The position numbers and the translations under genes are program-made. Source: a virus (Duplodnaviria > Heunggongvirae > Uroviricota > Caudoviricetes). Taken from it: a stretch of DNA of 37,974 bases. The DNA is taken from positions 1 to 37,974 of the IMG/VR virus record IMGVR_UViG_2778261505_000008. One strand, written 5' to 3'. The notes under the pieces are model-generated. The model was not told the DNA's origin, made no database searches, and saw only the letters and a list, made by a program, of their open reading frames with translations. Below, piece after piece: positions 3,260 through 17,284 of this stretch (positions are counted from its first letter, which is position 1; every line of letters begins with the position of its first letter).

Positions 3260-3835
3260 TCACTCTCCCTTGATGCGAATGCCAGCGGCGCGCTCGGCTT
3301 CACTTTGTTCCCAAAACCACTTGTGAAGCTCCATGAGCTTTTCGTCAATCTGTGCATATTTGCGATTAAAGTAGGCCTGAGCATCTTTCTCAGATTCGTT
3401 CGGCAATTCGCCTGGGCAAAACAGTGTGTTATAAATCCATGCCAGTCCGCTCTTAGCGTCGCCAGTTGCCTGCCATTCGATAATGGCAGCCTGCATGACC
3501 AGAATGTTTTTCCCGATTAATAGGTCCAGTTCTTTATACCGGTTGCGGATGTATGCATTCTCGCTTTGTAATTCAGCGTTGCGCTTCTCTGCTGCTTCCA
3601 GCTTCTTGTAGAGAGCATCCCAACTTGTCGAGTTATCCATAACCAGCTTTGTAACCCGCTCTTCGCGTGATTTGTAATGCTTCAGTTCATCCAGTAGTGC
3701 CAGCACAATGTGTGGCGTTATCAAGGACTCAAATTCGGCAACAGTTTGCTCGCCTCGCTTGTAATTCTTAATCCCACCTAAATTTTTCGCGTTCTGTGCC
3801 GCCTCACGCAGTGCCTGGTAATTAATTTCGCTCAC
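3260..3835 (-). CDS. Ea22-like coiled-coil protein (191 aa)
   Basis: ORF track 3260..3835 (-). N-terminus [21 protein letters not shown] and heptad-rich body resemble the ead/Ea22-like family common in lambdoid b-regions. Remembered similarity only. Confidence 0.55.
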   Translation of the reverse strand: MSEINYQALREAAQNAKNLGGIKNYKRGEQTVAEFESLITPHIVLALLDELKHYKSREERVTKLVMDNSTSWDALYKKLEAAEKRNAELQSENAYIRNRYKELDLLIGKNILVMQAAIIEWQATGDAKSGLAWIYNTLFCPGELPNESEKDAQAYFNRKYAQIDEKLMELHKWFWEQSEAERAAGIRIKGE

Positions 3836-4314
3836 TGGTTTCCTCCTTTGCGAAGCTGGTCGGCGAACAAACGTACACCAGACGCTTCACTGCGTAGAAA
3901 CTTAGCGGCATAATCAAAACCACCTCGTTCTGCGTCGTCTGCTCCGTTGTCGAGGTTATCTGCGTACATCTCTACCCCCTGCGCCCGCACTTCAGCCAGG
4001 AAAGCGTCGGTGGCTGACATATTTCCTGTTGCCTTCATGGCCTTCAAAATAACCAGAACGCCATCTTGCCCAACCAACTCGGAGATAATCTCAGTGTTGT
4101 CGCCAACAACATCACAGAATGCCTGAACAGCTTTACGAGCAAGTGCATTCTCCGCCGCCAGCGCCGCGCACTTGGCCTCCGCTTCAGCAAATTTACGCAC
4201 CAGATATTCAGCGTTTGTTTCGTTAACCTTTAAATCTCGTGGGATGCATTTACCTTTCAGAAATCCATCCATCTCAATTAGTGACATTTGTTTCATTTCT
4301 TCCCACTCCGCCAC
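3832..4314 (-). CDS. Hypothetical protein (160 aa)
   Basis: ORF track 3832..4314 (-). ATGA-type overlap with the downstream gene. Start could instead be at M7 or M10. Confidence 0.5.
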
Positions 4315-4467: not shown

Positions 4468-4764
4468 TCAGTCATTACTGATAGCGCCATAACGTGAGCG
4501 GTAATTACGCAGGCGCGGGTCGATATATTCAGGGAAGTGGGTATATGTGGCTTTGCGGAATGGTCGGATTGATGTCTGGTAAATTCGCTCGTGTTCTTCT
4601 TTCTCTGCAAGCCATATACAGTGGCGAAATTCCTTTTCCTCTTTCGTTTCCTGCGGTAGAGACATTATTCGATCGTAGTTTTTTCTGAATTTATCCAGCA
4701 CCTCCGATACGGAATTGCCGGAACAGCGGCGCGGGTCATCCGCACCATACAGAGGCGCTGGCAT
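4468..4764 (-). CDS. Hypothetical protein (98 aa)
   Basis: ORF track 4468..4764 (-). ATG at 4762-4764 preceded by AGGAGG with a 5-nt spacer. Lies immediately downstream of ssb. Confidence 0.6.
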
Positions 4765-4777
4765 GATTTCCTCCTGA

Positions 4778-5293
4778 TTAAATTGCGTGAATAGCGTGAC
4801 GAGGGAAGGGGAGAGTTACTGGCGCAAATGGTATATCGTCGTCAAACTCCATAGGTGGTTCGCTGTGATTTCCCTGCTGCTGAGGTTGCTGTCTTTGTTG
4901 CTGACCGTTATTTCGCTGAGGTGAAGACTGTTCATTGCCTCCTTGCTTGCCACCAAGCATTTGCATGGTTCCACCAACGCCCACGATGACTTCGGTAGTG
5001 AACCGATCCTGTCCGCTTTGATCCTGCCATTTTCTTGTCCGCAATTTGCCTTCAAGATAAACATCAGAGCCTTTTCGCAGATATTCGCTGGCAATTTCTG
5101 CCAGTTTCCCGCTCATTACCACGCGGTGCCACTCCGTCTGCTCCTTTTGCTCTCCAGTTTTCTTATCACGCCATTGTTCTGACGTAGCAACGGTAAGGTT
5201 TGCAAATGCCGTTCCTGATGGTGAATATCTGATTTCTGGATCATGCCCAAGGCGACCAATAATGATCACCTTATTTACGCCTCTGCTTGCCAT
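4778..5293 (-). CDS. ssb: Single-stranded DNA-binding protein with a 15-residue extension after the DDDIPF motif
   Basis: ORF track 4778..5293 (-). [16 protein letters not shown]...WHRVV...[12 protein letters not shown] is a canonical SSB OB fold, Gly/Gln-rich linker and acidic tip. The frame continues [15 protein letters not shown] before TAA, verified codon by codon on 4778-4849. Confidence 0.9.
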
Positions 5294-6001
5294 TTATGCC
5301 GCCTGTTTTAGTTCGTTAACTCTGATGTTCATTACCTGAACGCATTTAGCCTGCGCCTCCTCGTTGCCAGCCATTAATTGCCAGTCACGCTGATAACGCT
5401 CGATGAGTTTTTTCTTGTCAGTTTCTGTTGACGCATAATCGCTGAAGTCTTTCAGGATTTGTTCGCAGTCAACCGATGGAGATTTCTGGTTGGTATTTTC
5501 TGGTGATGGTTTGTTATCTGATGCTGGGATTGCCCATCCCGGAAGCGATGGAGGGAGCCAGTAAAATCCTGTTCCATCCTTCAGTTTTGCCCTGTGCCAC
5601 CCCTGCTTTTTATCGAGAGATGTTTGTGCGAAACCTTCCTCAAGGTTATACAGATACCGACCGATTCCCCACTGAACGGCAGCGCGCTTCATTGCACCGG
5701 AACGACCACCTTTGACGGCTTCTACCTGCGTGTTTTCAGCAGCATCCCATTTGGTTACCCATTCGGAATCAATCTTTATTGATATGCCGCATTCAACGCC
5801 GCCGTTGTTGGGAATATCGCGGTATTCATTGCGCCATCCTGCTTTGCCGCAAACATCGTCCAGGCGTTTCATGATTGCCCGGTTCGTGACATAAGCCAGC
5901 ACCATAGCCCACACCTTGCCATCGCGTGTTTTACCGCTTTGCTGTATTCGCCATTCGATATCTTCAGGGCTGAATGGCTCATCGAATTTATTCAAATCCA
6001 T
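5294..6001 (-). CDS. Single-strand annealing protein, Rad52/Sak-like
   Basis: ORF track 5294..6001 (-). Motifs RDGKVWAMVLAYVTNRAIMKRLDDVCGKAGWRNEY and GGRSGAMKRAAVQWGIGRYLY resemble Rad52-fold phage recombinases. Directly upstream of ssb, a typical recombination pair. Confidence 0.55.
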   Translation of the reverse strand: MDLNKFDEPFSPEDIEWRIQQSGKTRDGKVWAMVLAYVTNRAIMKRLDDVCGKAGWRNEYRDIPNNGGVECGISIKIDSEWVTKWDAAENTQVEAVKGGRSGAMKRAAVQWGIGRYLYNLEEGFAQTSLDKKQGWHRAKLKDGTGFYWLPPSLPGWAIPASDNKPSPENTNQKSPSVDCEQILKDFSDYASTETDKKKLIERYQRDWQLMAGNEEAQAKCVQVMNIRVNELKQAA

Positions 6002-17128: not shown

Positions 17129-17203
17129 GGGTCAGTCGTATAAAGGTCATTACGGAAGGCTGTTAACCTTCTTATCGTGGTTCGAGTCCACGCTGTCCCG
17201 CCA
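17129..17203 (+). tRNA. tRNA-Asn (anticodon GUU) candidate, 75 nt
   Basis: Hand fold: acceptor gggtcag/ctgtccc (one U-U mismatch), anticodon stem gaagg/ccttc with loop CUGUUAA, T-arm cgtgg-TTCGAGT-ccacg, discriminator G, encoded CCA. Confidence 0.6.
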
Positions 17204-17208
17204 AATAT

Positions 17209-17284
17209 GCTGGTTTAGCTCCAATGGTAGAGCAGTCGCCTTGTAAGCGAATGGGTAGCGGTTCAAGTCCGTTAACCAGCACCA
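17209..17284 (+). tRNA. tRNA-Thr (anticodon UGU) candidate, 76 nt
   Basis: Hand fold: perfect 7-bp acceptor gctggtt/aaccagc, D-arm gctc-caatggta-gagc, anticodon loop CUUGUAA, T-arm agcgg-TTCAAGT-ccgtt, discriminator A, encoded CCA. Confidence 0.7.

Follow-up and report, generated by a model that had tools for sequence, protein, structure and literature searches.

A conserved 15-residue tail follows the internal docking tip of the ssDNA-binding protein SSB in a lambdoid recombination module and in a wider family of phage proteins

The virus record IMGVR_UViG_2778261505_000008 (Caudoviricetes), analysed here as one stretch of 37,974 nucleotides (the window), carries on its minus strand the gene ssb for SSB, a protein that binds DNA in single-stranded form (ssDNA). 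The ssb locus is a lambdoid, P22/Sf6-like recombination module, and its features are collected in Table 1. A preliminary description of this DNA, made from the letters alone, had read the conserved SSB tip as EFDDDIPF followed by 15 further residues before the stop. This is what the 171-residue minus-strand open reading frame (ORF), which starts with ATG, contains, and the span given for it, 4778-4849, is exact: the stop codon lies at 4778-4780, the 15 tail codons lie at 4781-4825, and EFDDDIPF is encoded at 4826-4849.

In other respects, the protein is a typical SSB. It scored 182.5 bits against TIGR00621 (cut-off, 53.95), a profile of bacterial-type homotetrameric SSBs, and its identity with the SSB of E. 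coli K-12 is 62%, the alignment stopping at DDDIPF. The acidic amphipathic tip D-D-D-I-P-F is present at residues 146-156, and the linker that follows the OB domain is disordered: in an AlphaFold2 (AF2) model of the whole SSB built with 115 sequences, residues 106-171 had a predicted local distance difference test (pLDDT) score of <50, meaning that the C-terminal third is predicted to be disordered, and the linker entropy was 1.29 bits. What sets the protein apart is that the tip is not the extreme C terminus with a free carboxylate on its Phe, since 15 residues follow. The last position of several curated NCBIfam SSB models, including TIGR00621 and the top-scoring NF006533, corresponds to residue 156, the tip Phe; none of the matching curated NCBIfam SSB profiles reaches past it, and residues 157-171 lie outside all of them. 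A PDB sequence search matched the tip only, and a protein search with the last 33 residues returned 11 matches, mostly fragments.

Table 1. Features of the ssb locus in the window and the evidence for each
Feature	Position	Strand	Evidence
ssb gene, 171 codons and TAA stop	4778..5293	-	ORF list; PF00436, E=5e-38; phrog_44, E=2.9e-68
OB-fold ssDNA-binding domain, residues 6-105	4979..5278	-	Pfam SSB match; AF2 beta-barrel strands (confidence low to moderate)
Disordered linker, short and rich in Gln, residues ~113-145	4859..4957	-	Entropy, 1.29 bits; pLDDT <50
Internal SSB-Ct tip, 11 residues, 146-156	4826..4858	-	Entropy, 0.23 bits; pN/pS, 0.083
Post-tip tail, 15 residues, 157-171	4781..4825	-	115/120 homologs; entropy, 0.34 bits; pN/pS, 0.06
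TAA stop of ssb; abc2 start 13 nt further downstream	4778..4780	-	Sequence, alignment
Intergenic spacer with abc2 Shine-Dalgarno sequence AGGAGG	4765..4777	-	Sequence
abc2, anti-RecBCD gene, downstream neighbour	4468..4764	-	PF11043, E=2.4e-61
Rad52/Rad22-type single-strand annealing protein gene, directly upstream of ssb	5294..6001	-	PF04098, E=5e-26

Analysis of close relatives showed that the tail is a regular part of this group of SSBs. Among the 120 best homologs in a collection of 5.8 billion proteins (73-97% identity; hosts E. coli, Klebsiella, Citrobacter, and Salmonella), 115 have a 15-residue tail and then a stop, all following the pattern [AS]P[VI]TLPFPRH[AT][IV][HY][AV][IL]. At the DNA level, the tail was found in 402 complete E. 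coli genomes out of 5426, and 294 of the 402 have a contiguous tip and tail within an annotated ssb gene. The SSBs of phages ECP1 and HK75, which were examined directly, end with the identical 15 residues, and the tail DNA lies inside the ssb genes of mEp235, mEpX2, epsilon34, g341c, and CP-1639. Tail length is the same in the 115 proteins, in 102 SSB loci that were picked out by scanning DNA for a pattern, and in 46 of the 80 closest viral contigs. These contigs were chosen by the OB domain alone, i.e., independently of the tail; 46 of them have the complete tail and 34 end with DDSDIPF and a stop, and no shortened or lengthened tail was found in this census. A stop codon directly after the tip was not found in any tail-bearing relative examined.

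These comparisons, which the preliminary description had proposed as a check, bear on the three explanations that it offered. The first, a specialised phage SSB, agrees with the conservation of the tail across a large group of phage and prophage SSBs. The other two, a sequencing or assembly error and a recent loss of the stop codon in the window genome, have nothing in their favour beyond the unusual position of the tip. Both can be rejected, because the identical extension is found in isolated phages (ECP1, HK75, mEp235, epsilon34, and g341c) and in hundreds of independent genome assemblies, including ssb genes that are synonymously saturated relative to the window, and the probability left to them is negligible. 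Nor is the extension missing from close homologs and created here by a single-nucleotide difference; the only tail-less close relatives are those that carry an HNH endonuclease gene insertion, described below. Two SSB entries in the databases are probably artefacts or pseudogenes: P0007 (244 residues, ENA) is an E. coli SSB in which residues 1-67 occur twice, and P0037 (194 residues) is a window-type SSB frameshifted just ahead of the tip.

Conservation was then compared along the protein. In 115 aligned sequences (the window SSB and 114 homologs, the linker being measured at positions 113-144), the mean entropy in bits per position was 0.34 for the tail (0.14 for its first ten residues), 0.23 for the tip, 0.32 for the OB domain, and 1.29 for the linker, which puts the tail on a par with the OB domain and far above the linker in conservation. 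The same trend was apparent from the proportions of nonsynonymous (pN) and synonymous (pS) differences. In about 14 lineages with diverged tail DNA, pS relative to the window was 0.24-0.64 whereas pN was 0-0.09, and the pooled pN/pS of divergent carriers against the window was 0.06 for the 15 tail codons, compared to 0.083 for the internal tip and 0.27 for the OB domain. Because the search pattern prescribed the first nine residues of the tail, part of this dN/dS evidence is biased; the pooled pN/pS was 0.22 for the five tail codons that the pattern left free. For the broad family, pairwise dN/dS values were saturated and noisy and were not used as evidence. The constant length over ~250 occurrences argues against neutral read-through, which should gain stops and frameshifts. 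On these comparisons, the tail is genuinely part of the translated protein and is maintained by selection.

However, not every lambdoid copy can be taken as independent evidence of selection, as many copies share near-identical tail DNA. For many of the lambdoid carriers in E. coli, pS relative to the window is ~0.8 in the OB domain (saturated), compared to only 0.08 for the tail. Synonymous divergence falls along the end of ssb, from ~0.8 in the OB domain through ~0.5 in the tip to 0.08 in the tail (for example, in carriers L036, L038, and L048). Judged by this gradient, the tail DNA of many E. coli lambdoids is a recently exchanged mosaic block whose boundary runs through the end of ssb. A census of neighbouring genes, together with the divergence measured within ssb, suggests that the tail and abc2 form this block.

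The tail could also be conserved at the nucleic acid level, through translational coupling to abc2, as a recombination boundary sequence, or as an RNA element, and both the distance of 13 nt from the ssb stop to the abc2 start and the mosaic junction at the tip/tail region in E. coli lambdoids would fit this explanation. It is nevertheless very improbable. First, variation is concentrated at the synonymous sites of the ssb frame. Second, the tail DNA showed no Rfam match, terminator, promoter, or stable RNA fold (fold z-score, +1.04). Third, the gene downstream is often not abc2, which makes an explanation at this level unlikely: in many loci an exonuclease gene parts ssb from abc2 yet the tail stays with ssb, and in the wider family described below the downstream genes differ or are convergent. 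The exonuclease gene is optional and, as annotated, encodes a 3′-5′ exonuclease; it lies between ssb and abc2 in L004 (2132-2680) and in 25 or more viral loci and has been described as DnaQ-type (PMC12315714). The tail remains on ssb in these loci, and the window has no exonuclease cassette between 4764 and 4778.

Beyond the close relatives, the tail is found on many other phage SSBs. The last 26 residues were compared at the protein level with 50,697 phage records, and matches covering both tip and tail were obtained in 228 of them, the SSB of Proteus phage V3 being one example among the matches. The 26-residue peptide of the window is not the only type; GLQYGRNFLHCF is another tip-plus-tail peptide. 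Tailed C termini end with APIGLPYGRNFIHCI in Klebsiella phage KpS11, with APVGLQFGKKFMHVI and APIGLQYGRNLLHVI in Vibrio phages, and with APIGLQYGRNFLHCF in Phapecoctavirus and Justusliebigvirus, each followed by the stop. When viral contigs were scanned for DDDIPF-AP-[IVM]-G, at least 121 matches with at least 63 different tails were obtained. Tail length was 14-16 residues in all of the broad-family matches listed (at least 121) and 15 residues in all 128 lambdoid-type matches. The family profile, derived from 98 distinct peptides, is A-P-[IV]-[GT]-L-[PQM]-[FYH]-[PGN]-x-x-x-[IL]-[HYN]-[ACVS]-[ILM]-stop. The tail of the window SSB agrees with the family at its start (APVTL, matching A-P-[IVM]-[GT]-L), in its length (a stop after 15 residues, within 14-16), and at its end, where I-H-A-I fits the hydrophobic family end [IL]-[HYN]-x-[ILMVF]-COOH.

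Tailed SSBs occur in phages of Escherichia, Salmonella, Klebsiella, Vibrio, Aeromonas, Pseudomonas, Acinetobacter, Proteus, and Serratia, including phi92 and rV5. The carriers span at least five scaffold families (phrog_44, phrog_743, phrog_112 [T7 gp2.5-like], phrog_2544, and phrog_4477), and four carrier groups show no mutual BLAST similarity outside the C terminus. Several records named as Campylobacter phages also match the tip-plus-tail peptide, the motif being otherwise found only in gammaproteobacterial phages; these matches could reflect mislabelled hosts or real spread. Among the lambdoid carriers, the upstream annealase is Rad52-like, Erf, or Sak4-like, and the SSB backbone is as low as 33-37% identical to that of the window. 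Clustering of the genes that neighbour the carriers revealed no universal partner, with no gene common to more than 28% of them, which argues against a dedicated phage partner encoded beside ssb. In modules of the Erf type (L018, L047, L028, L084, and L127), an ORF of 94-109 residues begins ~10-20 nt past the stop of the tailed ssb. These ORFs had no Pfam match and showed only ~28% identity to the Abc2 of the window, and a representative, that of L018, matched phrog_656 (abc2 anti-RecBCD; E=4.7e-18). They look like a divergent Abc2 lineage missed by Pfam. Elsewhere in the window, a 160-residue ORF downstream of abc2 (3832-4314, minus strand) had no Pfam family and matched phrog_614, of unknown function (E=1.8e-51), and two adjacent tRNA genes, Asn-GTT and Thr-TGT, lie on the plus strand at 17129-17203 and 17209-17284.

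The junction between tip and tail is also a site at which endonuclease genes are found, and three arrangements were apparent. First, the SSB of Sf6 ends with NFDDSDIPF and a stop, and the HNH endonuclease gene gp26 comes next (locus L002, 2091-2570), the 3′ end of which uses the same 45 nt as the tail of the window. The insertion is exactly between the tip and tail codons, corresponding to the junction 4825/4826 of the window, which represents the uninterrupted allele. The inserted cassette brings its own differently coded tip, NFDDSDIPF, and a stop, and 14 tail codons become the C terminus of gp26. The same tail-only match as in Sf6 was found in IME10, N7, Bas106, and Huey, and the interrupted state accounts for 34 of the 80 closest viral contigs. 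The GenBank record of Sf6 credits gp26 with 14 contiguous residues in common with "E. coli SSB" and has nothing more on the tail. Second, in ES18 (L278, 1203-1724) and Salmonella phage 103203_sal5 (L279, 1347-1739; Lederbergvirus), a different HNH gene directly follows the tip. It is unrelated to the Sf6 type and annotated as similar to T7 gene 7.7, and the tail is wholly absent. Third, in phage morffagbaw (L277, 1547-1987), whose tailed C terminus ends with DDDIPFASVGLQYGKHRIYAL, and in rV5 (L282, 1841-2464), which has a tailed SSB-like protein, the ATG of an endonuclease gene lies within the last tail codons. Both of these ORFs are in the +1 frame and have a common Cys-rich N terminus (...KCxKCGxVKxLxEFYKH...). 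Bas52 (L281, 1082-2308), of the same genus as rV5, has a near-identical SSB-like protein that ends with SFDDDIPF and has neither tail nor endonuclease. PADLOC gave no match for the SSB, HNH, or Abc2 proteins.

The traffic at this site raises the possibility that the tail is a neutral hitch-hiker, a scar or flank left by homing endonucleases and mosaic exchange at the 3′ end of ssb that has no function in SSB. The three endonuclease arrangements at the exact site (Sf6 gp26, ES18 gp47, and the rV5/morffagbaw types), the presence of both tail and endonuclease in rV5 and of neither in its close relative Bas52, the recently shared block of tail DNA in E. coli lambdoids, and the viability of tail-less phages would all be expected on this explanation. 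However, we consider it improbable. No such endonuclease lay beside the tail in any of the 141 distinct carriers with enough downstream sequence (0/141), no truncated or extended tails were found in the 128 and at least 121 occurrences or in the OB-domain census, and the amino acids are kept across synonymous divergence, pN/pS being well below 1 where the DNA has diverged. A derivation of the tail from the HNH gene itself was ruled out: HNH relatives elsewhere are without it and end soon after ...WHKHNKPIYPE, and the phrog_2340 profile stops ahead of it. The tail is therefore part of ssb, with the cassette having entered between tip and tail. More probably, the endonucleases target the tip/tail site because the site is conserved.

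What the tail may do can be approached from the way in which partner proteins hold the tip. The pockets of DnaG, ExoI, RecO, chi, and PriA all make ionic contact with the Phe that ends the tip, and in DnaG this contact is a salt bridge to the carboxyl group (PMC5872125). A natural extension past this Phe should therefore weaken canonical docking. When green fluorescent protein (GFP) was placed directly after the tip of E. coli SSB, detectable ExoI binding was abolished, and plasmid complementation failed to yield the SSB-GFP fusion, as would be expected of a dominant-negative protein (PMC7293020). The suggestion made at the outset, that partner binding could be altered when the tip is internalised, is reasonable and agrees with the findings on such artificial C-terminal fusions (PMC7293020). 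At the same time, the internal tip is strongly constrained, which indicates that it is not simply silenced.

Our preferred interpretation, to which we assign a probability of roughly 45%, is that tip and tail make up a composite docking motif, which alters the choice of partners brought to ssDNA by the phage SSB. The two would act as one disordered peptide module of ~26 residues at the protein end. The tail would remove canonical docking through the terminal Phe, leading to weaker recruitment of tip-dependent host enzymes such as the 3′-5′ exonuclease ExoI, while one or more partners, probably host proteins, would read the extended peptide and its hydrophobic free end. Less ExoI on 3′ ssDNA tails would suit a recombination module that neutralises RecBCD via Abc2. 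The existence, distribution, conservation, length, and portability of the tail were observed directly, and we infer from them that it may serve as a protein-protein interaction motif that reprograms partner choice.

Several points weigh against this interpretation. A peptide of 15 residues may block docking less than GFP does. The composite function is proposed from sequence analysis and analogy, and the partner is putative. The search-pattern bias noted above affects part of the selection evidence, and recent mosaic exchange means that the number of independent tail lineages is modest. Endonuclease cassettes can carry the tip-plus-tail peptide onto other scaffolds or remove it, as the comparison of rV5 with Bas52 indicates, and portability between scaffolds need not reflect function. 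Finally, there are viable phages without the tail on SSB, namely, Sf6, IME10, and N7, in which the HNH gene took it, and ES18, which lost it; therefore, the tail is not essential. A bolder version, which is possible but on balance unlikely, holds that the peptide is a portable interaction cassette with which gammaproteobacterial phages rewire the SSB hub of the host and which endonucleases shuffle between unrelated SSB scaffolds. The host-identical tip would then be kept for recognition and the ~15 added residues would switch specificity, so that, for example, ExoI, RecJ, and RecQ would be excluded from phage ssDNA or one host enzyme would be bound tightly and thereby hijacked or inhibited.

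The tail might instead be directed at SSB itself, folding onto its own acidic tip or binding the tip of a neighbouring SSB, with no tail-specific external partner. The tip would in that case be masked until ssDNA or a partner releases it (a caged tip), or the coating of ssDNA would become more cooperative. A number of features agree with this: the tail is never found without an adjacent tip, save where an HNH gene captured it; its length is fixed at 14-16 residues; it starts right after the tip with a turn-like Pro-x-Gly sequence (A-P-[IV]-G); the Asp run could pair with basic residues, which the tail has at positions 9-10; self-binding would work on any scaffold without a conserved neighbour gene; and the tip is still under strong constraint. 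Set against these, the lambdoid version has six prolines in 26 residues and is a poor fit to a hairpin, AF2 shows no confident contact (pLDDT <50), and the positive charge of the tail is too small to neutralise the tip. Self-directed regulation is accordingly rather unlikely, though the most serious competitor from outside the composite-motif idea.

Control by proteolysis is less probable again. Here, the hydrophobic C terminus would be a degradation tag, or the tail would be a pro-peptide cut after Phe156 to expose a normal tip when it is needed. The hydrophobic ends (...AIHAI, ...LHCI, and ...LNCM) with basic residues before them, and the nearly invariant Ala-Pro right after Phe, would suit either role, and the same tail on the Sf6-type HNH endonuclease would fit keeping that nuclease short-lived. 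There is also a loose likeness between these ends and the signals that ClpX recognises at C termini, for instance in MuA, which we take to be a resemblance only. However, the cleavage is putative, P22-like phages are not known to have a maturation protease, and a degron seems costly for SSBs, which are needed in bulk. A different candidate, a beta-sliding-clamp binding motif, was also examined by pattern comparison. The consensus of this motif is QL[SD]LF or QLxLxL, and PVTLPF resembles the QLSLPL of Hda but is without the Gln; several family tails have Lys in place of Leu, and E, C, or H also occurs at the last position. On this comparison, the motif fails across the family, and the candidate was given less weight.

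An SSB with an internal docking tip followed by a conserved tail has apparently not been described so far. The tail strings occurred in no searchable paper, topic searches found no description of a capped or extended SSB tip, and the papers on DARNA and Hna have nothing on such tails. A 2025 survey of lambdoid recombination modules lists SSB-1 proteins as without experimental study (PMC12315714). The finding matters for several reasons. First, the SSB tip serves over a dozen bacterial enzymes of genome maintenance as their central docking site and is an antibiotic target, and it governs the performance of phage recombinases in recombineering. Second, a large natural family with an internal, perfectly conserved tip questions the rule that the tip must be C-terminal, and natural pairs are at hand for testing this rule, namely, the window-type SSB against those of Sf6 or ES18, and rV5 against Bas52. 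Third, tailed SSBs may explain how phages protect or redirect ssDNA intermediates, and they may have a bearing on defence systems that sense phage SSBs, e.g., DRT10, which is linked to ExoI. Finally, annotation pipelines label the tailed proteins as plain SSB, and with matching NCBIfam profiles that stop at the tip, the tail is invisible in annotation.

Comparison with known systems places the tailed SSBs among related but distinct cases. Free-standing homing endonuclease genes, such as mobE of T-even-like phages, interrupt conserved genes or lie directly beside them. The HNH gene of Sf6 is likewise inserted at a conserved coding sequence and replaces its flanking codons, but this insertion is a feature of relatives, and the allele of the window is uninterrupted. 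E. coli SSB (...PPMDFDDDIPF-COOH) has a similar OB domain, a disordered linker, and an 11-residue tip that differs at one position (E for D in the window); however, its tip ends the protein and its linker is longer, whereas the window SSB has 15 further residues and a much shorter linker. In the SSB-C-term-GFP fusion of Dubiel et al. (2020; PMC7293020), the tip is likewise internalised by residues directly after Phe, but the addition is man-made and a large folded domain, while the tail is short, natural, conserved, and predicted to be disordered. The SSB of HK620 (HkaK), also from a lambdoid recombination module, requires its C-terminal peptide NDYPPF to stimulate its cognate annealase, Sak4 (PMC5928155), and provides a precedent for phage-specific SSB tails. 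HkaK differs in that it belongs to another fold family and its tail is terminal and tip-like, with no extension past a host-identical tip. In T7 gp2.5, which some of the tailed proteins resemble (phrog_112), an acidic tail ending in Phe mediates partner binding; this Phe is the last residue, and its deletion reportedly keeps the protein from interacting with T7 DNA polymerase. Bas52_0087 offers a natural contrast. A 2026 preprint (10.64898/2026.04.29.721553) presents it as the SSB-like trigger of DRT10 and highlights its FDDDIPF motif and a possible interplay with ExoI (SbcB), and the passages covered here make no mention of tip extensions. The tailed SSB-like protein of Klebsiella phage KpS11 (Vequintavirinae) is similar to Bas52_0087 in size. 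Bas52_0087 shares its scaffold with the tailed ORF214 of rV5 and has a host-like FDDDIPF, but its tip is free and without a tail, unlike that of rV5 ORF214 and of the window SSB.

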